A DNA stretch of 64,000 nucleotides from Thermoplasmata archaeon. GTDB taxonomy: Archaea > Thermoplasmatota > Thermoplasmata > RBG-16-68-12 > JAGMCJ01. Under the pieces are notes generated by a model. That model searched no databases. It saw only the letters and a list, made by a program, of their open reading frames with translations, and was not told where the DNA came from. A program made the translations under genes and the position numbers. This document shows, one piece after another, positions 21,912 to 55,079 of the stretch. Position 1 is the first letter of the stretch. Every line of letters starts with the position of its first letter. The stretch lies in assembly GCA_023136265.1 (NCBI GenBank), contig JAGLRN010000034.1, positions 761 through 64,760 of the forward strand, given 5' to 3'.

Positions 21912-22103
21912 TCACTTCTTCCCGAGAAAAGCGTAGGTCATCCACTCCTTCTTGTCCTTCATGCTCAACCACGCTCTTGTCAGATCGGGGACCTGCTTCG
22001 CTCTCTCCACGGCCAGGGATGCTATCGTCCTGGCCGCTATCGCGTCCACGTCCACTCCTAGGACGCTCTTGAGCAGGTATTTAACCCTTTCCCTCTTGTC
22101 CAT
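21912..22103 (-). CDS. hypothetical small protein
   Basis: 63 aa ORF preceded by an A/T-rich TATA-like element (TTTTTTTAAATA ~20-35 nt upstream). No recognisable domain. Confidence 0.3.
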   Translation of the reverse strand: MDKRERVKYLLKSVLGVDVDAIAARTIASLAVERAKQVPDLTRAWLSMKDKKEWMTYAFLGKK

Positions 22104-22255: not shown

Positions 22256-22603
22256 TTATCTTGATAGGACGTCGACGGCTTTCCAGTCGCCTCCGAAGTC
22301 CTTGGTGACGCCTGAGGCCAGCTGGAACCTGACTCGAAGCCTACCATTCTCGAAGAATATGTAGGCGTTCTTGAGTTGGGAAAGATAGAGGCTGATCCGC
22401 TTTCCTCTCTGCGTGAGGGCCCTTTCTACACACGTTATCAGTCCGGCTCTCTCCAGCATGTGGATTCTTCGGTATGTCGCAGCGATCGGTATCCCGTACT
22501 CCCTGCTGAGTTCAATCGCGCTCTTGGGTTTCTTGAACGTAGCAACAAGGATCCTTGCTGCGTATTCGTCGGTAATCAGTCGTGATGCTTCCAAAGGATC
22601 CAT
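22256..22603 (-). CDS. small winged-HTH (ArsR/TrmB-like) regulator, paralog 1 of a four-member family in this window
   Basis: 115 aa. HTH core ELSREYGIPIAATYRRIHMLERAGLITCVE. Conserved C-terminal beta segment LKNAYIFFENGRLRVRFQL. ~70% identical to the 30662..31006 product. Confidence 0.6.
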   Translation of the reverse strand: MDPLEASRLITDEYAARILVATFKKPKSAIELSREYGIPIAATYRRIHMLERAGLITCVERALTQRGKRISLYLSQLKNAYIFFENGRLRVRFQLASGVTKDFGGDWKAVDVLSR

Positions 22604-22696
22604 CTTCTTTCCTCCTGACCTCTATATTCCAATCCTTCGCGACCATATATATAACGCAACGGGACGAGTATCATGGCTGATTCTCAAATGTAATAA

Positions 22697-23266
22697 TCAA
22701 TCGCCTATGACATCCGCGTTCCTCTCCAGAAGGGCCAGTTCCTTCGGTTCAAAAGCCCGCGGGTCTATCGAGACGAGGAACAGAGCCTTCTTCTGCATCA
22801 CGATCTCGTTCACGTACTCTATGAACTTCAAGACCCTCGGGAAGTCGTTGTTAATCATCAGGTACTCGAGCCCATCGAGGAGAATGGCTGCCTTGCTCCC
22901 CTTGTCCATGAAGCTGCCTATGAGGTTCGTGAGGCTCCCGAGGTTGTGGGGATCGACATAGTCCCTGCCGAGCGTGGTGGAGAGCCAGATCACCTTCATC
23001 CCGTCCCGCCCGCGCTTCCTAGGTATGTGATCTGGATGCCTCCTTGTGATGTAAAGGCCCGCGTAGCCATCATCCATCAGCTCGGTGAGGTACTCGAGGG
23101 CCCTCTCGTGCCTCTTCTCACGGAGGAAGTAGGAGTGCCCCTCTTTGAGAACATCCTTCCCTCTGCCCAGAAACAGGTCTCGGAAGAGCTCGTCCGTCGT
23201 GTTGTCTATGCTCAACATTAGTAGGGGCAGCATTCCCAACCAATCCTCGTTTGGATTACCTCTCAC
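22697..23266 (-). CDS. DUF835-like protein (degenerate RecA/KaiC-fold, no P-loop)
   Basis: 189 aa. ...DGYAGLYITRRHPDHI occupies the place of a Walker A; ...AAILLDGLEYL...ALFLVSIDP layout. Upstream of wHTH paralog 1 on the same strand. Confidence 0.5.
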   Translation of the reverse strand: MRGNPNEDWLGMLPLLMLSIDNTTDELFRDLFLGRGKDVLKEGHSYFLREKRHERALEYLTELMDDGYAGLYITRRHPDHIPRKRGRDGMKVIWLSTTLGRDYVDPHNLGSLTNLIGSFMDKGSKAAILLDGLEYLMINNDFPRVLKFIEYVNEIVMQKKALFLVSIDPRAFEPKELALLERNADVIGD

Positions 23267-23377
23267 AGGTTCTTATACATTCTGCAATCAATATCAGGAA
23301 TGATACTCTGGTCACATCCTGGACCTGGGCCGTGAGCATGCGAAAACGCTAAATCAAAGCCGACTGATACATCCTCA

Positions 23378-24715
23378 ATGATGCTCACCGCCTTGGAGAA
23401 GCCGACGGGCACCTTGAGGATCCTCGCGTACGTCTATCAGAACGATCGCGGAACGATCTCGGATTTCTACAGGAAGATCGGGATAAACCAGGAATCCGCC
23501 TATTCCTCTCTCAGGAATCTCCTGCAGCTCGGCCTAATCTACGAGAAGGAGGAGGGCAAGTTCCCCTTCAGGAAGTTTTACTTGCTCACAACCACGGGGG
23601 ACCAGATCGCGAAGAAGCTGTCGTCCATAGAGGAAACGCTGAACGACACCGTATATGGCTACTATCGCAAGCTCGAGGAGCTGGAGACAGCGCCCGAGGC
23701 CCCGGAGAACCTCGCTGCCCGGCTCGAGATGATGCTCAAGATACAGGATGTCTGCTTCGCGACCGGTGAGTGGGATTCCTGCATGGAGTACTGCGGGAGG
23801 TCACTGGACCTAGCTCGGAGATTGGACGACAAGCCCGCCCAGCTCAAGGTCTTCAGGGACACCGGATGGATTCACGAGAGGAGAAGTGACTGGGACGAGG
23901 CCAGGAAGAACTTCGAGAGCGCTCTTGAAATGGCGAAGGAGACGGGCGATATGTCCGCCAAGGCTAGCATATTCTATGACCTGGGAGCCATCCACGAGAG
24001 GAATGGGGAGTACCGCCGAGCATTGGAGTTCTTCGACAAGTCGAGGCAAGCCTCCCATGACGCCAAGAATGACTGGAATCTGGCAAGAGCTCTGTACGCC
24101 TTCGGGCGGGTGGAGGCCCAGAGGGGTAACTACAAGAAGTCCATCGGGTACATGGAGAAGTCCATCGGGATGCTCGAGGAGATCGGGGACCTGAGCGAGC
24201 TTGCCAAGGTCTGCACCGGAATGGGGGCCACATGGTTCTATCTGGACGACATGGACAAGACCATCGAGTGTCACGAGAAGTGCATACGGACTGCCGAGAA
24301 GCTGGGGGATGCGACGGGAATCGGATACGGTCTGTCCAACGCGGCCGAAGCCTACGCGCTGAAAGGCGACACGAAGACGGCGCTCATATACCTCGAGAGG
24401 GCGCTCCGTATCTTCGAGAAGCTCAACGAGAGGATGATGATATCCTCCGTGTACTCCCACTACGGTCAGACCCACCGACTCAGAAAGGAATGGAAGAAGT
24501 CGGAGGAGTACTTCGGCAAGAGCATTGCCATCCTGGAAGAGCTCAACCTGCCGTACAACATGGCCGATGCCCACCACAAGTTCGGTGTCATGTACAAGGA
24601 GAAGGGTGAGCGGGACAACGCCCTTGATCACCTCTCCACGGCGTACGAGATATTCGAGAAGATTGGAAGCAAGAGCATGATGGAGAAGGTCGCCGATCTG
24701 CGAAAGGACCTCTAG
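23378..24715 (+). CDS. winged-HTH + TPR-repeat protein (putative regulator/scaffold)
   Basis: 445 aa. N-terminal ~90 aa is wHTH-like (ISDFYRKIGINQESAYSSLRNLLQLGLI). Then at least 6 TPR-like repeats (e.g. ASIFYDLGAIHERNGEYRRALEFFDKS, ARALYAFGRVEAQRGNYKKSIGYMEKS). Confidence 0.6.
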   Translation: MMLTALEKPTGTLRILAYVYQNDRGTISDFYRKIGINQESAYSSLRNLLQLGLIYEKEEGKFPFRKFYLLTTTGDQIAKKLSSIEETLNDTVYGYYRKLEELETAPEAPENLAARLEMMLKIQDVCFATGEWDSCMEYCGRSLDLARRLDDKPAQLKVFRDTGWIHERRSDWDEARKNFESALEMAKETGDMSAKASIFYDLGAIHERNGEYRRALEFFDKSRQASHDAKNDWNLARALYAFGRVEAQRGNYKKSIGYMEKSIGMLEEIGDLSELAKVCTGMGATWFYLDDMDKTIECHEKCIRTAEKLGDATGIGYGLSNAAEAYALKGDTKTALIYLERALRIFEKLNERMMISSVYSHYGQTHRLRKEWKKSEEYFGKSIAILEELNLPYNMADAHHKFGVMYKEKGERDNALDHLSTAYEIFEKIGSKSMMEKVADLRKDL

Positions 24716-27785: not shown

Positions 27786-28346
27786 ATGCTGGAGAAGCTG
27801 AAGAAATCCATGGACGAGTGCCCGGTCGTGAAGTTCGGTGACTACGAGTACTTCGTACACCCCATTACGGATGGCATTCCGCTCGGGGACCCTGAGGTCC
27901 TGGAAGAGGTGACGGAGGCCATAATCAGCGTGGCGGACCTCGACTGCGACAAGATAATCACTGCGGAATCGATGGGTTTCCCCTTGGCAGCATCGCTCTC
28001 TCTGGCCACGGGCATCCCCTACGTCTTCATCAGGAAGAGGGAATATGGGCTCCCAGGTGAGACTTCAGTGAAGCAGCTCACTGGATACTCGGGCTCGGAC
28101 ATGTTCATCAACTCCATTGACGAAGGAGACAGGGTCGTCTTCGTCGACGACGTCCTGAGCACGGGCGGGACCATAAGGGCGATATTCCAGGCGTTGAGAA
28201 CTCTCAAGGCGGTTCTGGTCGACGTTGTGATTGTGTTCAACAAGAACCCGAACAAGGAGAAACTGGAGAAGGAACTGGGTACGAGAATCCAAACACTTCT
28301 CGACGTTCGTGTTGTGGACGGAAAGGTCGTGTGTACTCAGGGCTAA
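27786..28346 (+). CDS. type I phosphoribosyltransferase, hypoxanthine/guanine PRTase-like (purine salvage)
   Basis: PRPP-binding motif VVFVDDVLSTGGT. 186 aa, the archaeal HGPRT size. Lies in an operon with the MTAP and MtaD genes. Confidence 0.6.
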   Translation: MLEKLKKSMDECPVVKFGDYEYFVHPITDGIPLGDPEVLEEVTEAIISVADLDCDKIITAESMGFPLAASLSLATGIPYVFIRKREYGLPGETSVKQLTGYSGSDMFINSIDEGDRVVFVDDVLSTGGTIRAIFQALRTLKAVLVDVVIVFNKNPNKEKLEKELGTRIQTLLDVRVVDGKVVCTQG

Positions 28347-28396
28347 GATTCCCCCCTGGAAATGCCTTTCTGTGCATTTGCCAGTTCGCGCTGAGC

Positions 28397-28436
28397 TTAT
28401 CAGTTGTGATAATCAGTGCGAAATCCACTTAATAGT
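28397..28436 (+). promoter_or_regulatory. perfect inverted repeat TTATCA-N4-TGATAA followed by TATA-like ACTTAATAGT upstream of the DUF835-like/KaiC-like operon
   Basis: The inverted repeat occupies 28397-28412 and the TATA-like box 28427-28436. The likely start ATG is at 28470. Confidence 0.3.
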
Positions 28437-28469
28437 GGGGCTCAATTCTTTTCACTAGGCTGGGTCCTA

Positions 28470-29165
28470 ATGGTATACGAAACTGAAGTAATCGCCATGA
28501 GGGACGTGATATCCCAAATGATGAAGACCTCGCAGAATAGGCTCTTAGTGAACACTGACAGGGTCTACTTGGCGAAAACCAACCTCATCACGCTCAAGTC
28601 CCTTCTCGAGGAGGTGGGGCCCAGAGGGATCTTCTTGTCTATCAACCGACCCTACCACTACATGGCCCATCTGCTGAGGATCCACAAGGTCGACTACGAA
28701 GAGATGCTCTTCATCGACGCCATCTCCAAGATATCGGGGGAGAGGAAGATGGAGTGGAAGCAGACCACGTTCTTGGACAGCCCATTCCAGATTCCCAAGA
28801 TATTCGAGGACCTGCAGCTGATTGGTAAGACCTTGGACGGCTCCACAGCCATCATCAAGATCATCGAGGGCGACTTCGTTATGATAGACGACATCTCGGC
28901 GATCTTCCACTATAACGAGCTGGGAACCGGAAAGCGCTTCCTGAAGGAGTTCCTCGATGCTGTCGCCTCCAACCCGAAGTCATTCACTGCGTTCGCGATT
29001 GACCGGGAGACCCAGAGGGATACTTACGAGTTCCTGGCCGACCACTCCGACAGGTTGGTGGACATGGGCAACGCAGCCTTCATGGAGGTTCCCAAGGAGT
29101 TCCAGGAAGGGCACACCCCCATGCTACCGCCGTCAGAGGGCAAGAGAGGGATGGTCCATGAATGA
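28470..29165 (+). CDS. DUF835-like degenerate RecA/KaiC-fold protein (no Walker A)
   Basis: Start chosen at MVYETEV... (28470) on promoter spacing. ...PRGIFLSINRPYHYMAHLL... replaces the P-loop. 8-nt overlap with the downstream KaiC-like gene. Confidence 0.5.
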   Translation: MVYETEVIAMRDVISQMMKTSQNRLLVNTDRVYLAKTNLITLKSLLEEVGPRGIFLSINRPYHYMAHLLRIHKVDYEEMLFIDAISKISGERKMEWKQTTFLDSPFQIPKIFEDLQLIGKTLDGSTAIIKIIEGDFVMIDDISAIFHYNELGTGKRFLKEFLDAVASNPKSFTAFAIDRETQRDTYEFLADHSDRLVDMGNAAFMEVPKEFQEGHTPMLPPSEGKRGMVHE

Positions 29166-29841
29166 TGCGATCATAAGGCGGTCCAGCGGAACGCCCGGCC
29201 TGGATGAGATGATATCTGGAGGTTTCCCCTTCCCCTCGGTTCTCCTCGTTGCTGGGAGTGCCGGGACGGGAAAGACGACCTTCGCTCAGAAGTTCCTTTT
29301 CGAGGGTGCCAAGAACGGAGAGCAGTGCATATTCTTCACGACGCTCAGCGAGCCCACCCAGTGGATGTTGAGGTTCTCCTCCCAGTTCGAGTTCGTCGAT
29401 CCAGAGTACTTCGGCAGGGAGATAGTATACATCGACATAGGACACGACATAAGGGAGAGGGGCTCCCATGAGATCCTCGACGTCCTGGATGAGAAGATCG
29501 CCGAGATCATGCCACAGAGGATAGTCATCGATCCGATTACCATCGTTTGCGACTTCATAGAGGACAACTACAGGACATTCTTGTTCGATCTAGTCACTAG
29601 GCTGAAGAACTGGGATTGCGTGACGGTCCTGACGGGCGAGGTCGCTCCCGGTCAGCTTTATCCGCCGGAGATCGCCCACGCCGTGGACGGGATAGTCCTG
29701 CTCATGTACTCGCACGAAGGTGACGAGAGACGCAAGTACATCGAGGTCCTCAAGATGAGGGGAACGAACCATGTCACCGGAAAGCAGTCAATAGACATCA
29801 CAACCGAAGAGGGCATAGTCGTTCTCAAATCGAAGTTCTAG
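29158..29841 (+). CDS. KaiC-like single-domain RecA-superfamily ATPase
   Basis: Walker A AGSAGTGKTTFAQKFL. Walker B-like ...RIVIDPITI. 227 aa, the KaiC/RadA-paralog size. Confidence 0.75.
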   Translation: MNDAIIRRSSGTPGLDEMISGGFPFPSVLLVAGSAGTGKTTFAQKFLFEGAKNGEQCIFFTTLSEPTQWMLRFSSQFEFVDPEYFGREIVYIDIGHDIRERGSHEILDVLDEKIAEIMPQRIVIDPITIVCDFIEDNYRTFLFDLVTRLKNWDCVTVLTGEVAPGQLYPPEIAHAVDGIVLLMYSHEGDERRKYIEVLKMRGTNHVTGKQSIDITTEEGIVVLKSKF

Positions 29842-30008
29842 TAGGCCCGGAGAGCGGGCCAGAGCGTCATTATCGCACGTGATAATGGGAAAACAAGATG
29901 CTTATACTCTGCGCCTGCTGTTTCAAAGAGCCAACAGATAACGATGACCCCTCCTCCGAGGAAGGACGAGGCCCCATTTTCTTGGGATCTTTGCTTTCCT
30001 CACCCCCC

Positions 30009-30017
30009 TTTTTTTAT
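30009..30017 (+). terminator. oligo-T tract downstream of KaiC-like operon
   Basis: CCCCCCTTTTTTTATT lies ~170 nt after the stop at 29841. Confidence 0.25.
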
Positions 30018-30250
30018 TCGTGTAATGGGTGAGGATGGGCTAGGGAACTATTCGAGATCCTTCTTCCTCGTGTCCTTGAAAACGATGACGTTGAGGCTTA
30101 TGACCTCTTTTTCTTCGTCCTCCTCCTTTGGAAAAATCACGCTTTTGCCGTTGGGAAGGATTTTGTGGAATCTTAGCTTCATCTTATCAGTAAATCGTAG
30201 AGAGCCGGTTTATTTAAACTCAGTCTCACGGTTATCGAGAGTGATTCTCA

Positions 30251-30589
30251 TTACAGAATCTCAATCGTCTCCCAATCCTGCGTCACTGCCTGCTCATCCA
30301 GTGTGAGGACGAACCTCAGCCGGATGTCGTTGTCCTCAATGTGAATGTGCCCCTTGTTGAGATTGGCCTCGAAGAGCCTCACTACTCTTCCTCGCCGTGT
30401 GACGATTCTCTTCCTCACCGACAGAAGTCCTGCCCTCATGAGCAGGTTCAGCTTCCTGTAGCACGAGGCGATTGGAATCGAGTACTTCCCGCAGAGCTCG
30501 TACGCGGATTTCGGTGAGAGAAACGTCGCAACAAGGATGTGCTTCACATCATCATCGCGCAACAGTTTCAGCTTCTGATGGATGTTCAT
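30251..30589 (-). CDS. small winged-HTH regulator, paralog 2 (most divergent)
   Basis: Start set at MNIHQKLKLLRDDDVKHILVATF. This aligns residue for residue with the N-termini of paralogs 1 and 3. HTH YELCGKYSIPIASCYRKLNLLMRAGLL. C-terminal RLRF motif. Has its own TATA-like element (TTGATAAAAAG) in the 72-nt spacer. Confidence 0.5.
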   Translation of the reverse strand: MNIHQKLKLLRDDDVKHILVATFLSPKSAYELCGKYSIPIASCYRKLNLLMRAGLLSVRKRIVTRRGRVVRLFEANLNKGHIHIEDNDIRLRFVLTLDEQAVTQDWETIEIL

Positions 30590-30661
30590 CAGAGAACGTA
30601 TTAGTGTGACAAATAATGGCACTTTCGACCTTTTTATCAAAAGAGAGTATCAGAAGAGATA

Positions 30662-31006
30662 CTACTCCTTGGAATCGACGCCCGTCCAGTCCCCGCCGAA
30701 GTCCTTGATCACACCGGTGGTCAAGTGGAAGCGGACCCTGAGCCTTCCGCCTTCAAAGAAAACGTAAGCGTTCTTGAGCCTCGAGGTGTAGAGGTTCTTC
30801 CTCTTCCCCTTCTGCGTCAAAATGCGCTCTACGCACTCCACGAGCCCTATCTCCTCAAGGGCCCTGATCTTTCGATAGCAAGCAGCAATCGGTATCCCGT
30901 ACTTCCTGCTTATCTCTTGGGCGCTCAGTCTTCTCTTGAAAGTTGCCAAGAGGATCTTCGCCGTGTATTCATCCGTCAGCAGTTGAGAGGCTTCTAGCGG
31001 TGTCAT
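30662..31006 (-). CDS. small winged-HTH regulator, paralog 3
   Basis: 114 aa. MTPLEASQLLTDEYTAKILLATF...YGIPIAACYRKIRALEEIGLVECVE...GRLRVRFHL. ~70% identical to paralog 1. Confidence 0.6.
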   Translation of the reverse strand: MTPLEASQLLTDEYTAKILLATFKRRLSAQEISRKYGIPIAACYRKIRALEEIGLVECVERILTQKGKRKNLYTSRLKNAYVFFEGGRLRVRFHLTTGVIKDFGGDWTGVDSKE

Positions 31007-31134
31007 TCTAAACCCTCCCTGATACCCCCATGACGAGAAGTTCTCAGGTTATGGTTGTAGTTCGTATCACTTTCTGTATTTAAAGGCTTCCCTTAAGCTA
31101 TCAGCAAGGAGAACACAATTATCAGGATTGATAG

Positions 31135-31488
31135 CTACCTGGTTGGGATGGGGATCTTGATCCACGTGTTGTTGATGTCCTCGTCGTGGTTGAACTCAAG
31201 TCTGATTCTGAAATGCCCTTCCTGGAACATGATGCAGGCGCTCTTGAGCTGTGACTTGTAGAGCTTCATGTTCTTTCCCTTGGAGGTCGTGACGATCTTC
31301 TCGACCTCGATCAATCCAGCGTCCTCGAGGTCATGCATCTTGCGGTAGCAAGCGGCTATGGGGATATCGTACTTGTCGCTGATTTCCTGAACTGACCGCG
31401 GGTAGAAGTACGTCGCAACAAGAATCCTCTCTGCGTAGTCATTAGTCAGTAGTCTAGAGATTGCCTTCTCCCGCATTGCGATACTCAT
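31135..31488 (-). CDS. small winged-HTH regulator, paralog 4
   Basis: 117 aa. ...YAERILVATY...YDIPIAACYRKMHDLEDAGLIEVE...FRIRLEF. Directly downstream of the two-domain KaiC-like gene. Confidence 0.55.
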   Translation of the reverse strand: MSIAMREKAISRLLTNDYAERILVATYFYPRSVQEISDKYDIPIAACYRKMHDLEDAGLIEVEKIVTTSKGKNMKLYKSQLKSACIMFQEGHFRIRLEFNHDEDINNTWIKIPIPTR

Positions 31489-31557
31489 TCTCTACTTGAT
31501 TTAAGCACATTTCTATGCAATTATCAACGATGATACCCATACACCCGTTTCAGGCGG

Positions 31558-33072
31558 CTAGATTATCGGTGTGAGCATGGCCTTTGGACAGCCACTCGAG
31601 TGATCGAAGGAAATGGCATGGAGCTCGGTGTAGGGCTTCTCGCCGAAGAGAACAACGGAACCGTCTATGTTCTCGATCTTCAGATGGGTGTGGGCAAGAT
31701 TCGCGAGCGGTGCGGTGGAAGAAGTCGTTGACGTAACAATCCCTATGAAGATGTCCTTCGCCTTCCTGATCGACGACATGTGACCGGCCATATCCTCTAT
31801 CACTTGGTGACCGAAGACCGCCTCCAGGGTATCGAATCCCATCAGGGACAGGATCGGACGCTCCGCCTGCGAGAGATGATACTCGATGTTGCTCAATTTC
31901 AGCTCGTTGTCGATATCAGAACCCTCCATAGGGAGTGCTATCTTGGAATCCTCGACAGACGTTGTGGCGGACGGCTCGAACACGCGCATGCATCTCTCGA
32001 GCGCCTCCTGGCCGACAAAAGGCATGATTTCGTCCCTAACGATCTCCGAGGAGGCTTTCTTCTCGGGGACGAACGCAACTCCCCTGCCGAGTGAGATGAA
32101 ATTCGATAGGAGCGCGGTCTTGATGAGGTCGGTGTACAGCGTGTCGACATTCCCGCCTACCTCCAGAGCGACTATCGTACCCTTCTTGAATCCGCCTATC
32201 AGAGCGTCGAGTTGCTCGCTTCCCGTCGAGATCCAGTTCTCCGATATGTCCGGTATGGGTACCCAACTCGACTTCTCTTCCGGTATCTCAATCTTCTCGA
32301 AGCCGAAGGTCTTGATCCTCCCCCCGTCCAGAGTGTAGGCGCACTTGTGCTGCCTGATCTCGGTGCCGCGAAGCTTCTCGATCTTCATAATCCTCAAGCG
32401 TCTGCCCTCGTGTTCCTCGCTCGTGAACGTGATGACCCCGTCCCCAAGATAATCGAGCCGCGTCTCCCCAGGGCTCTCCAGCACATACAGGACATCGGAC
32501 GAGGAAGTCTCGACCAGGTCCTTCTGGAGTGTGTTCATTAGCTTCGAGGGGTGGATCCCGTATCTCTCCGCCAGCGCGTTGATGCTGTCTATCAGTATGA
32601 GGCTCTTCTCCGGGAGCGTGTCCTCGACCACATCATATGCCCTGTCGATCTCGGGGAGGTCCGATCCAAGGTCCAGGATGAGGCTGGTCTCCGTGACCTC
32701 GCCCTCGCTTATCTTGTCGTAAATGCTGCTCTCGTCCTCCTCGCCCATCTCTATCCTGCCCTCGAGCTTCTTGAGCTCCGTTCTGTCGACCTTGCCTTCC
32801 TCCTCCTCAGGCCTTTGGTCGAACCTTGTCGGGGCGATCCGCTTCTTGAACTCGACCCTGTCCTTGAGCCAAGGGAACTGGTTGTACAGGGAATGGTCGC
32901 TTACCCTGATCGACATGTAGTAGGAGTTCTCGACACTCCCCAGTTCCTCTGTCAGTTGCAGGGCGAACGTCGTCTTGCCCGTTCCCGCACTGCCCTTGAC
33001 TATCAGGGAATGTCCACCTGGCCCTTTGAAGAAATCCAGCAGCGCATTGGGAATACCCTTCTCTTCCTTCAT
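31558..33072 (-). CDS. two-domain KaiC-like RecA-superfamily ATPase (active N-domain, degenerate C-domain)
   Basis: 504 aa. Walker A GSAGTGKTTFALQ in domain 1, followed by a charged insert. Domain 2 (GGFKKGTIVALEVGGNVDTLYTDL) lacks a P-loop. Confidence 0.75.
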   Translation of the reverse strand: MKEEKGIPNALLDFFKGPGGHSLIVKGSAGTGKTTFALQLTEELGSVENSYYMSIRVSDHSLYNQFPWLKDRVEFKKRIAPTRFDQRPEEEEGKVDRTELKKLEGRIEMGEEDESSIYDKISEGEVTETSLILDLGSDLPEIDRAYDVVEDTLPEKSLILIDSINALAERYGIHPSKLMNTLQKDLVETSSSDVLYVLESPGETRLDYLGDGVITFTSEEHEGRRLRIMKIEKLRGTEIRQHKCAYTLDGGRIKTFGFEKIEIPEEKSSWVPIPDISENWISTGSEQLDALIGGFKKGTIVALEVGGNVDTLYTDLIKTALLSNFISLGRGVAFVPEKKASSEIVRDEIMPFVGQEALERCMRVFEPSATTSVEDSKIALPMEGSDIDNELKLSNIEYHLSQAERPILSLMGFDTLEAVFGHQVIEDMAGHMSSIRKAKDIFIGIVTSTTSSTAPLANLAHTHLKIENIDGSVVLFGEKPYTELHAISFDHSSGCPKAMLTPII

Positions 33073-33205
33073 TTGACACCCTACGTCAGTAAGGGCAACT
33101 CCCTTTTAGATGTTTTTCTCCTCGTTATCAGGAGTGAGAACGTCCGGCTGACGGAGATGATCGGTTACGGAGGCCTCTCTTGGGCACGCCGCCCGCCGAA
33201 AATGC

Positions 33206-34201
33206 TCACTTCCCGATGGCCTTGAAAGCCTCCCGCGCAACGTTCACGTCGTTCTGATGGAAGAGGAGACCCACTGCCTCGGCCTCCGTGCACCACTTGT
33301 ACTTATCGAACCTGGATTCGGGCTCTGGTTTTCCCTCGGGAGCACGCGCGAGGAAGTAGGTGACCTTCTTCCGGTAGTTGACGTCGTCCTGGGGCCAGTA
33401 ATAGGAGTACTCGACCTCACATAGCTCCCGCTCGATTTTTGTCGACCCGAGCCCCGTCTCCTCCTCCATCTCTCTCATGGCAGCGCGTTCCGGGGTCTCG
33501 CCCATCTCGATGTGACCTTTCGGAAGGCACCAGAGTTTCTCGCTCCTTTTGCGGATGAGAAGGATCCTTCCCCTCCTGTGGATGACGCCTCCAGCGGTCT
33601 TGACGGAGATATCTCTATTCCCCTTCCTGGCGGGCCTGCTGATAATCCTCACCTCCTCGGATTCTGCAAACTCCTTCGCCCTTTTCAGGTCTGACGTCAG
33701 GTGCTTCAGCAGCCGTCTGTTGTAGAGGACCGCCGCGGGGTGGTAGGTCGAGATTAGTGGCCTTCCCTCGTATTCCCTGGTTTCGAGCCGAGCCTCGGAC
33801 ACCTTCACGGACTTGCCGGCTAGGACGCTGTGCGCGAACGATCCTAGCGCCACGACTGCATAGGGGTCCACCGCATCGATGTACGCTTCCAGATGGGGTC
33901 GGCATTTCTCTATCTCGTCCTTTCTGGGGTTCCGATTCCCCGGCGGACGGCACCGAAGCACGCTCGTGATGAAAACGCCATCCCGCATCAGACCCGCCTT
34001 CTTGAGCGATTCGTTCAGGATCTTTCCCGCCGCTCCGACGAAGGGGCGACCTTGCTTGTCCTCCTCCCTTCCAGGGGCCTCCCCTACAAGGAATATGCGC
34101 GCGTTCCTGTCTCCCTCACCTGGAACCGCCCTCTCGCGTGTCTTCCACAGCCTGCACCTCCTGCATCGCCTTACCCGCCTCGCGAGTTCTTCCAGACTCA
34201 T
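33206..34201 (-). CDS. fusion protein: family-4 uracil-DNA glycosylase (4Fe-4S type) + NUDIX hydrolase
   Basis: N-terminal half has C-x2-C...GEAPG..E...G.PFVG.AG...R.DGVFITSVLRCRPPGNRNP...C and the HPAAVLY motif of UDG family 4. C-terminal half carries the NUDIX box GHIEMGETPERAAMREMEEETG. Confidence 0.75.
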   Translation of the reverse strand: MSLEELARRVRRCRRCRLWKTRERAVPGEGDRNARIFLVGEAPGREEDKQGRPFVGAAGKILNESLKKAGLMRDGVFITSVLRCRPPGNRNPRKDEIEKCRPHLEAYIDAVDPYAVVALGSFAHSVLAGKSVKVSEARLETREYEGRPLISTYHPAAVLYNRRLLKHLTSDLKRAKEFAESEEVRIISRPARKGNRDISVKTAGGVIHRRGRILLIRKRSEKLWCLPKGHIEMGETPERAAMREMEEETGLGSTKIERELCEVEYSYYWPQDDVNYRKKVTYFLARAPEGKPEPESRFDKYKWCTEAEAVGLLFHQNDVNVAREAFKAIGK

Positions 34202-36744: not shown

Positions 36745-36945
36745 CTATTCCTCGAAACCGAAGCCCATTTCCGGCTCACGGCATATGAGGAGGGATCTCG
36801 GCAGGTCATCGAAATCCTTGAATCGGAGAGTCAGAATCTCGTACTTCCCATCAGGAGTCATTCTTGTTGTCTTCATCTTGCTCCCTTTGCCTCGAACTTT
36901 TTCGATTCGTTTTCCAGGGTTTAAATGTTGCGTCCAGCCTATCAT
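36745..36945 (-). CDS. hypothetical small protein (possibly a shorter 43-aa product from the internal Met)
   Basis: ORF in the 400-nt gap between polX and the DUF47 gene. A TTTAAA element lies ~50 nt upstream of the internal MKTTR start. No homology recognised. Confidence 0.2.
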   Translation of the reverse strand: MIGWTQHLNPGKRIEKVRGKGSKMKTTRMTPDGKYEILTLRFKDFDDLPRSLLICREPEMGFGFEE

Positions 36946-37055
36946 GACTGATTCTCTGGCAGGTGATTGTGCACTCAGGTATTCGTCCGGCTCAAGTGAG
37001 CAAAAGCCTGGGCTGGGACCGGGGATACGAAGACCCGTCCGATGTCGAATTTCGG

Positions 37056-53426: not shown

Positions 53427-55079
53427 CTACAGCGAGGAGACCTCTTCGAGCCGCCCGAGGACGAAGTCCCTGTCCAAAACGGAGAGGAACGGAGCCGCTC
53501 TGGGCCCCCTCTCCTTCCCTAGGAAGACAAGGTACAGGGACACGAAGAACCTCCTCGTCTTCACGGGAAGCTCACCGCTCTTCGTCAAGCGCGTCATCGC
53601 ATTCTTCAGCTCCTCCTCGGTCCAGTGAATGTCGGAGAGTGATTCGCGGAACTTCCCGAGGGCCTCTCTGTCCGTGCGTTCGAGCTTGTCCTCTATCGAG
53701 CGGATGTCTTTCAAGACGTCGATTCTAAGATCCTCTGGGGCGTGTGTCTTTGTCCAATTCTTCGAGAGCATCAGCCTTTTGGCCACCTGCTTCCTCTCAT
53801 CGTCGCTCAGCTCGGTTGCGAGGACGCCGGTGTCCCGAAGTCTTTTGATGGCCCAATCGACCGGTTCCTCGGTAGGCCCTGTCTGGGCTAGGAGGGAGGC
53901 ATGTCTGTATGGGATTCGGAATGGCACGGACGAGGGAGCCTCTTCAAGTCGTGAAAGCCCGTAGGCTCTTGCCCCGTCGTCGTCTTCGTCCTCGAAGAAC
54001 ATCCTCTCCGCCTCATCGTATCGATCGTGATAGCTGTCCACCTTGGACAGGTCCAGGACGATCCTCTTTGACGTACTGTTGAACAGGAAGACGTATCTCA
54101 GGACCTCTGGCTCCCCAACCTCGAGCCATTCCTTCGGAGTGAACCCGAGGAATCCTGAGCTGCTCATGTCGCCCAAGTCCTTGCCCTGGCTCTGCATCCC
54201 CACCCACTCGTAGGGTATCCCATACGGAGGGAGCATATCCATGACCTCACGGGCGATCTCCTTGCAGCTGTCCCTCGAACCCCCCGGAGTGGCGTGGTCC
54301 TTCCCGAAGGCCTCGATGTCGACTTCCAGGAGCCTCCACAGGGCGGGCCACTCGAGCCGCCAGTTCAGCTTCCCTTCCTCCAGTCTGGACACACCGTCGT
54401 GGCCTTCCCTGCATCTGTAGTGAACGTCTCCATCCTCTGTCATTCTCGTGGTCTCGGCCGTCCCGATCGTGTTGCACTCCGTGCAGAACGCATCGAAGGG
54501 TATCCAGCCCTCGGGGTACTTCCTCTCCCCCCTGTACTTGTTTATCAGCGGCCTCACGTCTTCGCTCTTCCTAACCAGTTCGAGGACGATTTCGCGCATC
54601 TCCTCCTTGCCGTAGACATCTCCGGTCCTCTCCAGTTCCACACCGGGTGCGAACTCTTCCATGCTGCCGCCAAAATCCTCCCAGTAGTGCTCGACCCATG
54701 AGGAGTGACATCCGGAAGGGTCAGGGACATCCTTCAGCCGCCAGCTGACGTAGTCCCTTCCCTCGTCTCCAGGGAACTGAGAGAGCTGCCCCTCCGTTCC
54801 TTTCCACGGGTCCTGCGTGTAGAGCACGAGGTACTGCGTGACGTCCTTGCCCGCCGCCCTCAGCTCTCTCGATACCGAGTTCGTGAGGACCACTTCGCCC
54901 CTGAGCCTGCCGACGTGCTGGAGCCCACTCACGGAGAGACCCGCTGAGCTATGAACGACATCCTTTCCTCGAAGGAACTCTTCGATCTGGGGGAGAAGAA
55001 CATCAAGCCAGTGCATGATTTCACGCAATCGTGCGAGCCCTGACCAGCGCCCTGAGAGGGACTCCGAGGATCTCGTCAT
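53427..55079 (-). CDS. lysK: lysyl-tRNA synthetase, class I (archaeal type)
   Basis: MHWLDVLL..., SGLQHVGRLRGEV (HIGH-like), DPSGCHSSWVEHY, KDHATPGGS, and C-terminal FLGKERGPRAAPFLSVLDRDFV all match LysK. Confidence 0.85.
   Translation of the reverse strand: MTRSSESLSGRWSGLARLREIMHWLDVLLPQIEEFLRGKDVVHSSAGLSVSGLQHVGRLRGEVVLTNSVSRELRAAGKDVTQYLVLYTQDPWKGTEGQLSQFPGDEGRDYVSWRLKDVPDPSGCHSSWVEHYWEDFGGSMEEFAPGVELERTGDVYGKEEMREIVLELVRKSEDVRPLINKYRGERKYPEGWIPFDAFCTECNTIGTAETTRMTEDGDVHYRCREGHDGVSRLEEGKLNWRLEWPALWRLLEVDIEAFGKDHATPGGSRDSCKEIAREVMDMLPPYGIPYEWVGMQSQGKDLGDMSSSGFLGFTPKEWLEVGEPEVLRYVFLFNSTSKRIVLDLSKVDSYHDRYDEAERMFFEDEDDDGARAYGLSRLEEAPSSVPFRIPYRHASLLAQTGPTEEPVDWAIKRLRDTGVLATELSDDERKQVAKRLMLSKNWTKTHAPEDLRIDVLKDIRSIEDKLERTDREALGKFRESLSDIHWTEEELKNAMTRLTKSGELPVKTRRFFVSLYLVFLGKERGPRAAPFLSVLDRDFVLGRLEEVSSL

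Follow-up and report, generated by a model that had tools for sequence, protein, structure and literature searches.

In the GvpD/GvpE system, the activator acts through a bipartite upstream activating sequence (UAS) adjacent to the B recognition element (BRE), its own promoter included, and the P-loop ATPase GvpD causes Walker-motif-dependent breakdown of the activator GvpE (PMC4390858). The DUF835 domain has been classed as an inactivated KaiC-like (iKaiC) domain in archaeal signalling and occurs in response-regulator fusions (PMC5847659). Comparative genomics has led to the proposal that KaiC-like ATPases, together with their inactivated relatives, are the main signalling hubs specific to archaea, and neighbourhoods combining KaiC, inactivated KaiC and winged helix-turn-helix (wHTH) genes have been predicted in general terms to be such hubs (both in work cited in PMC5847659). 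The partners, outputs and cis-elements of KaiC-like ATPases are almost unstudied. Here we analyzed a compact test case in a 64-kb stretch of contig JAGLRN010000034.1 from a Thermoplasmata archaeon (the window), where an iKaiC gene (A) and an intact single-domain KaiC gene (B) follow a palindrome that recurs at the promoters of four wHTH paralogs, a GvpD-like ATPase and a DUF835 protein. With moderate confidence, we read the locus as a translationally coupled KaiC-type signalling pair set within a self-regulated palindrome/wHTH regulon, with feedback of the kind described for GvpD/GvpE.

Gene A (28470..29165, plus strand) encodes a 231-amino-acid iKaiC with a RecA fold and neither P-loop nor catalytic glutamate; gene B (29158..29841, plus strand) encodes a 227-amino-acid single-domain KaiC-family ATPase. 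The two genes share 8 nucleotides (ATGAATGA), and both this overlap, noted in the original prediction, and the tight spacing between A and B are real features of the locus that recur across relatives. Translational coupling of overlapping genes of this kind is established in archaea. The A product begins MVYETEV; a GTG start at 28416 was discarded because the extension would contain the TATA box and because all homologs begin MVYETEV. A profile scan with one genome per species led us to fetch 50 loci from the window's Thermoplasmata clade, Methanomassiliicoccales and one Aciduliprofundum metagenome-assembled genome (MAG). Of the 50, L029 ends inside A and was left out of the count; in each of the other 49, which reach far enough downstream, a B ortholog directly follows A. 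The stop of A and the start of B overlap by 8, 4 or 1 nucleotides, or are separated by at most 5, in nearly all loci, and a Shine-Dalgarno-like GGAGG or GGGGTGA lies within the 3' end of A; apparent gaps of +32 were traced to mis-chosen TTG starts. B orthologs are 54-67% identical where identity among A orthologs is just 23-33%, which makes A by far the faster-evolving of the two. The exact A and B sequences are also present in public Thermoplasmata MAGs, where A is labelled "hypothetical protein" and B "KaiA-binding protein", "circadian clock protein KaiC" or "RAD55 family ATPase". Across Thermoplasmata and Methanomassiliicoccales, the MAGs that carry the pair come from many environments.

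The original prediction described A as a degenerate RecA-fold protein without a P-loop, and this was borne out by profile matches to FlaH and DUF835, by a structural model and by secondary structure. The model is confident and resembles solved RecA-superfamily structures; the fold matches of A include the inactive RecA-fold partners Elp456 and RAD51 paralogs. A wider family profile matches FlaH at 2.5e-4, and it was needed for this match, as the narrow profile returned from the PDB a lone dehaloperoxidase that we judged spurious. With hhalign, the A3 profile aligns with the window's DUF835 protein over 114 columns (E 2.3e-5, probability 76%), so that "DUF835-like", the term used in the original prediction, holds in the sense of remote homology.

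To place the lost ATP site we used an hhalign alignment of A with B for register only, and this register agrees with the DUF835 alignment and with predicted secondary structure. Residues 25-39 of A (LLVNTDRVYLAKTNL) align with strand 1 and the P-loop of B (VLLVAGSAGTGKTTF), GIFLSINRPYHYMAHLL with strand 2 and the catalytic glutamate (CIFFTTLSEPTQWMLRF), MLFIDA with IVYIDI, and DFVMIDDISAIF with the Walker B segment RIVIDPITIV. The Walker A position of A is therefore NTDRVYLAKT (residues 28-37), opposite AGSAGTGKT of B, and it is unconserved, reading AKT, GKT or VRM across homologs with K36/T37 not kept. The original prediction had instead put GIFLSINRPYHY at this position, wrongly: that segment lies on strand 2 and the following helix, aligned with CIFFTTLSEPTQW of B. 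INRPYHY of A falls on the strand-2/catalytic-glutamate segment of KaiC (LSEP in B), with N-R-P opposite S-E-P, so that an invariant R60-P61 replaces the catalytic E65-P66. The LKxRG arginine-finger segment is missing from A as well. With Walker A and the catalytic glutamate both absent at the aligned positions, A has the makeup of an inactivated ATPase.

No Pfam model, DUF835 (PF05763) included, matches A or its 13 close homologs even at an E of 10, and scans of A and its close homologs against NCBIfam and PADLOC gave no match. Searching 5.8 billion proteins with a word index brought up no more than 14 relatives, every one from a Thermoplasmata-type archaeon; an exhaustive profile search for the family gave 787 cluster representatives at E<=1e-3. 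Among ten family members scanned, most of the distant ones score on DUF7504 (PF24336), DUF835 (PF05763), DUF7090 and KaiC, and their matches to the KaiC model begin at position 45-80, that is, minus the Walker A part. To judge from these profile relationships, it is justified to describe A as a remote DUF835/DUF7504-type iKaiC rather than a Pfam member and, as far as we checked, its family is a previously unmodelled iKaiC family that bridges KaiC, DUF7504 and DUF835 and is recognised by no Pfam or NCBIfam model. Five longer family members that we read carry membrane-type N-termini, and such fusions of an A-like domain are consistent with a role in signalling or as a partner module. In P0098, P0117, P0140 and P0153 a conserved N-terminal region that contains hydrophobic membrane-type segments precedes the A-like iKaiC domain, and P0053 and P0065 combine an A-like domain with AAA_16, TPR and DUF835.

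Gene B fits the description of an intact KaiC-like ATPase that it was first given. It matches Pfam KaiC (PF06745) at 4.7e-43 (147.6 bits against a cut-off of 26.6) over residues 10-225 and profile positions 3-229, which is the full domain, and it aligns end to end with the CI (1e-24) and CII (1e-21) domains of KaiC. Walker A (AGSAGTGKT/GSAGTGKT, G33-T40), the catalytic E65, Walker B (VIDP, D125) and K199/R201 in the LKMRGTNH (LKxRG finger) segment are invariant in 12 orthologs, suggesting that B is catalytically competent. B nonetheless falls below every NCBIfam equivalog cut-off, the best being TIGR03880 at 109 bits against 249, and it scores only 86-97 bits on the circadian KaiC models TIGR02655 and NF006799, whose cut-offs are 408-546, having one domain where these have a tandem. 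Being a single-domain protein below all of these cut-offs, B is a member of the KaiC superfamily and not a circadian KaiC. KaiA and KaiB families had no match among the window proteins scanned, a scan that did not exhaust the window. Against PADLOC defence models, B and the GvpD-like protein gave only short P-loop matches, and A and the DUF835 protein none.

The palindrome that precedes the pair, TTATCAGTTGTGATAA (28397..28412; TTATCA-GTTG-TGATAA), has 6-nucleotide arms around a non-palindromic 4-nucleotide spacer. As first proposed, it stands just upstream of a TATA-like box, CTTAATAG (28428..28435, plus strand), with a gap of 15 nucleotides; a BRE-like, purine-rich CGAAAT precedes the box and the ATG of A lies 34 nucleotides after it. 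The element is far more frequent in the 64-kb window than expected. For TTATC-N6-GATAA there are two exact copies against 0.02 expected, and allowing one mismatch raises the count to five (0.76 expected), all of them within 28.4-33.1 kb; the core TATC-N6-GATA occurs seven times exactly (0.45 expected), a count reached in 0 of 100 shuffles. Six of the seven core copies (23292, 28398, 29871, 30648, 31120 and 31522) stand at promoters of the module's gene set; the seventh (54019-54032) lies inside a 550-amino-acid open reading frame (ORF; 53427..55079, minus strand) and was treated as probable chance. Searching for the motif elsewhere, as the original prediction had suggested, thus found it upstream of wHTH and KaiC-like genes, and the inverted repeat is neither unique in the window nor unconserved among relatives: upstream of A, the exact core is present in 21 of 51 loci and a copy with at most one mismatch in 39 of 51, against backgrounds of 0.5% and 2.4%.

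Ten promoters are marked once degenerate, orthologously conserved copies are counted, the sites being read together with their orthologs. In eight of them a TATA-like octamer (CTTAATAG, CTTATACT, CTTAAATC, TCTAAAAG, TTTAAATA, TATAAGAA, TTATATAT and TTTAAACC) follows 13-15 nucleotides after the end of the 16-mer, with a purine-rich, BRE-like (A/C)GAAA in between, about 5-6 bp from the palindrome. If transcription starts about 23 nucleotides past the TATA box, the centre of the palindrome would fall near -54. All sites are kept at orthologous promoters in loci L058 and L060, and L062, a 68%-GC relative, has exact AT-rich palindromes before its DUF835, A and GvpD-like genes. The core upstream of A is located at -59 to -74 from the ATG across loci (about -72 in L001-L007), and the gap from palindrome to best TATA-like 8-mer is 11-15 nucleotides in 30 of 39 non-redundant orthologous A promoters, in which the arms are fixed and the six central positions vary freely. 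The motif is over-represented, keeps its place with respect to the core promoter and conserves its arms rather than its spacer; these marks of a binding site support the palindrome as a conserved cis-regulatory signal and putative transcription factor site. A terminator was ruled out, as the stem is 6 bp and AT-rich, no T-run follows, and the element recurs at a fixed distance before TATA.

The best candidate to bind this element is one of the four wHTH paralogs, wHTH2 (30662..31006, minus strand; HTH_20 at 5e-7), preferred because it is the most conserved of the four and the motif is equally conserved. It is 63-97% identical across at least 120 Thermoplasmata relatives among the matches listed, resembles the wHTH domain of Csa3-type regulators (7e-8) and has the ArsR-family entry 2p4w as its best PDB match. 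The other paralogs, all on the minus strand, are wHTH1 (30251..30589; 112 amino acids from an internal ATG, with gene callers giving 111-112 in L058 and L060), wHTH3 (31135..31488) and wHTH4 (22256..22603). The true starts of wHTH1 and wHTH3 are probably internal ATGs, at 30589 (not 30640) and 31476 (not 31488); the TATA box of wHTH3 (31498-31505) is only 10 nucleotides before the annotated ATG at 31488, which is too close, implying a start at 31476 and a leaderless mRNA. With these starts corrected, all four paralogs are collinear from residue 1 and have in common an invariant IPIAxxYR, presumably the recognition helix.

Under the reading that we favour, A and B would form a two-gene, translationally coupled operon for a KaiC-type signalling pair in which A, a RecA-fold paralog devoid of a nucleotide site, acts as partner or modulator of B, for instance as an input or adaptor subunit, the two proteins being in physical contact. 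The element (T/G)TATC-N6-GATAA, 13-15 bp upstream of TATA, would be bound by the co-encoded wHTH paralogs; this distance makes the site most likely a UAS, and the sign of the regulation is deduced from it. From the palindrome, the wHTH proteins would switch the module on, and sites nearer to TATA in the wHTH1 and wHTH2 promoters would permit autorepression. By analogy with GvpD/GvpE, the members of the KaiC superfamily (A and B together, the GvpD-like ATPase and the DUF835 protein) may act back on the activity or stability of the wHTH proteins. In this scheme the folds, the sequence motifs, the coupling of the genes and the enrichment, geometry and conservation of the palindrome are direct results, and the contact between A and B, the identity of the protein at the palindrome, the direction of the regulation and the feedback follow by inference.

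Many small archaeal wHTH proteins of the ArsR, TrmB and Phr types are repressors, and the palindrome could likewise be a repressor operator through which the wHTH proteins autorepress the whole module until the KaiC-type ATPases relieve repression. The match of wHTH2 to ArsR-family 2p4w fits such a role, as do the wHTH1 and wHTH2 sites 0-8 nucleotides from a TATA-like box, and a dimer footprint 5-6 bp from the BRE could block TFB. Eight of the ten sites, however, lie wholly upstream of BRE and TATA at a fixed gap of 13-15 nucleotides, and the binding sites of repressors as a rule coincide in part with TATA/BRE or with the start of transcription; a geometry of this kind is typical of archaeal activators such as GvpE, whose UAS has to be close to the BRE (PMC4390858). 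We consider a general repressor possible but rather unlikely.

That the pair, as an active RecA paralog together with an inactive one, mediates recombination or repair in the manner of Rad55-Rad57, RadB or aRadC, and does not signal at all, seems to us very unlikely. One source does call B a "RAD55 family ATPase", B matches SSO2452 (2w0m) at 2e-18, UDG-NUDIX and PolX genes stand just outside the module, and Elp456 and RAD51 paralogs are among the fold matches of A. The best matches of B, however, are to KaiC proper, with NCBIfam RadA and RadB at an E of about 0.04; the repair neighbours are not kept in Methanomassiliicoccales, where Tmk and a proton pyrophosphatase (H+-PPase) flank the pair; the cis-element of the operon is common to wHTH regulators, the GvpD-like ATPase and the DUF835 protein; and the fusion of A-family domains to membrane-type N-termini fits signalling. 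Scarcely credible is the view that A and B are merely co-transcribed and A acts alone, binding for example a wHTH regulator or a ligand: P0080, a far DUF7504-type relative of A, does stand alone with no KaiC neighbour, and the window's DUF835 gene is paired with a wHTH gene and not an ATPase, but A and B are adjacent in 49 of 49 loci across order-level divergence and changing neighbourhoods, with their start/stop overlaps retained.

Several points weigh against the coupled pair within a self-activated regulon. The profile alignment of A with B, while collinear over 146 columns, has a probability of about 1% and is statistically weak, and no natural A-B fusion was seen among the longer A-family proteins. 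B has S64-E65 at the double-glutamate position of KaiC and so keeps one catalytic glutamate of two. A site 13-15 bp from TATA could equally serve a repressor, and the TATA, BRE and start-site assignments were read by eye from the sequence. Four of the ten sites are degenerate, and a match with at most one mismatch is by itself not significant in 64 kb; these four were accepted only because L058 and L060 keep them in position, spacing and sequence. Finally, in most Methanomassiliicoccales loci the motif is kept, yet the pair has neither a wHTH nor a GvpD-like gene closer than 6 kb.

The GvpD-like gene of the window (31558..33072, minus strand) encodes 504 amino acids with a P-loop domain and GvpD_bR2, and it exceeds the Pfam cut-offs for both PF07088 (2.5e-16, 60.5 bits against 24) and PF20440 (2.4e-11, 44.0 bits against 27.9). 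The original prediction had called it a fused two-domain KaiC-like protein whose active and inactive halves the A-B pair mimics in reverse order. It is, more specifically, GvpD-like rather than a generic two-domain KaiC. That A mirrors an inactive KaiC half of this protein is a weak reading, the C-terminal half giving only weak matches: the KaiC model covers residues 207-312 alone, and hhalign comparisons of this half with the A and B profiles were not significant. Nor is "split" supported as a description of the pair's history, A having its affinities with the DUF835/DUF7504 branch and not with a second KaiC domain, and no A-B fusion having turned up. As an analogy, "split KaiC" can stand, the model being the active-plus-degenerate architecture of the GvpD-like protein. 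The promoter of the GvpD-like gene has a degenerate palindrome, TTATCAGGAGTGAGAA (33125..33140), 14 nucleotides upstream of TCTAAAAG on the minus strand, and the orthologous site in L062 is an exact TTATCAAAGGTGATAA.

A second iKaiC, the 178-amino-acid DUF835 protein (22697..23233, minus strand; PF05763 at 5.9e-36), has orthologs in L058, L060 and L062. Its palindrome, ATATCAGGAATGATAC (23291..23306), is 13 nucleotides upstream of TATAAGAA on the minus strand, is identical in L058 and L060 and has an exact counterpart in L062. The DUF835 and wHTH4 genes make up a second small operon behind this same palindrome (22256-23306, minus strand), and a conserved 63-amino-acid ORF (21912..22103, minus strand) follows it. 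wHTH4 also has a promoter of its own with a degenerate palindrome, GTATCATGGCTGATTC (22668..22683), 13 nucleotides upstream of TTATATAT on the minus strand and conserved in L058 and L060. A divergent gene for a 445-amino-acid wHTH-TPR protein (23378..24715, plus strand) starts from the same intergenic region as the DUF835 gene and may be co-regulated with the DUF835 operon.

At the wHTH3 promoter the palindrome TTATCAACGATGATAC (31521..31536) stands 15 nucleotides upstream of CTTAAATC on the minus strand. At wHTH1, GTATCTCTTCTGATAC (30647..30662, conserved in L058 and L060) is about 8 nucleotides from GATAAAAA; wHTH2 has a distal site, TTATCAGGATTGATAG (31119-31134), and a proximal degenerate one, CTATCAGCAAGGAGAA (31098-31113), which abuts CTTAAGG, and this double site (31098..31134) is conserved in L058 and L060. 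A motif copy 0-8 nucleotides from the TATA-like box, rather than 13-15, thus sets the wHTH1 and wHTH2 promoters (30647-30662 and 31098-31113) apart, a geometry that could serve autorepression of these regulators.

Downstream of B, the second exact palindrome, TTATCGCACGTGATAA (29870..29885), is 15 nucleotides upstream of CTTATACT (29901-29908) and conserved in L002-L007. It precedes a putative non-coding plus-strand transcript, a candidate small RNA (sRNA) of ~85 nucleotides (29932..30018) that thus has its own palindrome and TATA box and consists of a single-stranded 5' GAUGACCCCUCCUCC, an 18-bp stem and a U7 tail. The 5' segment is anti-Shine-Dalgarno-like and conserved. The nucleotide block is conserved here and reading frames are not, and a 120-amino-acid ORF (29944..30306) was ruled out as a gene because its frame is unconserved among orthologs. 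RNAalifold on seven orthologs predicts 18 pairs, four of them with compensatory changes, and the single-sequence fold has a z of -2.3. No Rfam family was found in 28200-33300, and a seed search for sRNA targets found no significant complement within the window. The sRNA is absent from L062, where B and the small ORF that follows are 20 nucleotides apart.

That small ORF (30048..30182, minus strand) encodes 44 amino acids beginning MKLRFHKILPNGKSV, is conserved at the protein level with in-frame indels in L002-L007 and is called by gene callers in L058, L060 and L062. Its degenerate palindrome, TTATCGAGAGTGATTC (30232..30247), is 13 nucleotides upstream of TTTAAATA on the minus strand and reads TTATCG-N4-TGATTA in orthologs. 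A conserved hairpin, CCTCACCCC...GGGTGAGG (29998-30037), brackets a T-run between the convergent sRNA and 44-amino-acid ORF and may be a bidirectional terminator. Another micro-ORF, of 43 amino acids beginning MKTTRMTPDGKYEILTLRF (36745..36876, minus strand), is likewise conserved as a protein, and gene callers give a 43-amino-acid gene at the matching position of L058 and L060; the degenerate palindrome of its promoter, CTATCATGACTGATTC (36939..36954), stands 13 nucleotides upstream of TTTAAACC on the minus strand, and in L058 the corresponding site is an exact CTATCACCTCTGATAA. The two micro-ORFs have no detectable relationship to each other.

The surroundings of the pair change between lineages. 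In the window's clade and in L007, L010, L047 and L062, A and B stand beside wHTH genes and a GvpD-like ATPase; in L015 and L034 they stand beside wHTH genes, with no GvpD-like gene within the fetched stretch. The Methanomassiliicoccales loci (L008-L053) have the order Tmk, a divergent unknown gene of 235 amino acids, A-B, often PHO4-PhoU_div-PPK2, and then H+-PPase, a synteny that could reflect a link to phosphate and pyrophosphate metabolism or simply inherited gene order. L054 (8352-8726 and 7814-8002), a 2.3-Mb relative, keeps the synteny of GvpD-like, wHTH and wHTH2 genes with a Na+/H+ exchanger in place of A-B, and an uncalled ortholog of the 44-amino-acid ORF follows wHTH2. Even with one mismatch allowed, the motif was not found in this locus, nor beside its upstream phosphoribosyltransferase (PRTase) gene; only TGATAA half-sites occur there, one of them abutting CTTAAATA.

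A more speculative extension, which we think quite unlikely, is that the set of roughly 15 kb is a closed circuit of transcription and ATPase feedback, one that would put KaiC chemistry to use outside cyanobacteria as the basis of a timer, an hourglass or a bistable switch in an archaeon. Its members would be the four wHTH paralogs with their common recognition helix, four proteins of the KaiC superfamily (an active single-domain one, the GvpD-like ATPase and two inactive members), two micro-proteins, the anti-Shine-Dalgarno-like sRNA and one palindrome, and A, as the inactive subunit of a mixed ring, would determine how fast B hydrolyses ATP or autophosphorylates. As far as we checked, neither the obligate pairing of A with one KaiC subfamily, nor the palindrome with its fixed promoter geometry, nor the gene set so defined has been described. 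The A family shows which KaiC positions are replaced, Walker A being lost and the catalytic glutamate turned into an invariant arginine. With a defined motif, about ten target promoters of fixed geometry, four candidate regulators that have one recognition helix in common and a strictly conserved active/inactive KaiC pair, the locus makes the KaiC-hub hypothesis experimentally tractable.

Set against known systems, the pair has no sequence-level relationship to Rad55-Rad57, RAD51 paralog complexes or Elp4/5/6, and no repair context conserved across lineages. We compared B with the archaeal single-domain KaiC-like ATPases PH0284, PH0186, SSO2452, FlaH/ArlH and CirA (CirA: PMC10983859) and with cyanobacterial KaiC. 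Like the latter, B aligns end to end with CI/CII and has Walker A/B, one catalytic glutamate and the LKxRGT-H arginine-finger segment; unlike it, B is a single domain with S-E in place of E-E. A resembles the iKaiC domains DUF835 (PF05763), DUF7504 (PF24336) and MEDS in having a RecA/KaiC fold without a P-loop, and DUF835 in particular in its G-hydrophobic-strand-R-x-P signature (GIFLSINRP against GLYITRRHP) and Walker-B-like hhhhDD strand. It differs from known iKaiC domains in having no Pfam match, in keeping the N-terminal strand-1/helix-1 unit and in being strictly paired with a dedicated KaiC gene, the one far relative inspected, P0080, being unpaired.

The likeness to GvpD/GvpE extends from genes to cis-element. 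In both, a GvpD-family P-loop ATPase is encoded beside transcription regulators, and a cis-element of two halves around a 4-nucleotide spacer of irrelevant sequence stands just upstream of BRE/TATA; the genes for regulators and ATPase themselves carry the element, which implies autoregulation, as in GvpD/GvpE. This is not, however, a GvpD/GvpE system, for the neighbours of the GvpD-like gene are wHTH paralogs, a KaiC and small ORFs, and neither the bZIP-like GvpE nor any gas-vesicle family besides GvpD had a match among the proteins scanned, a scan that did not exhaust the window. Regulation here falls to four wHTH paralogs, and the element, a true 6-N4-6 palindrome, differs from the two direct 8-mers of Gvp; alongside the GvpD-like ATPase, the module also has a KaiC with one domain and two iKaiC proteins, as well as small ORFs and a candidate sRNA.

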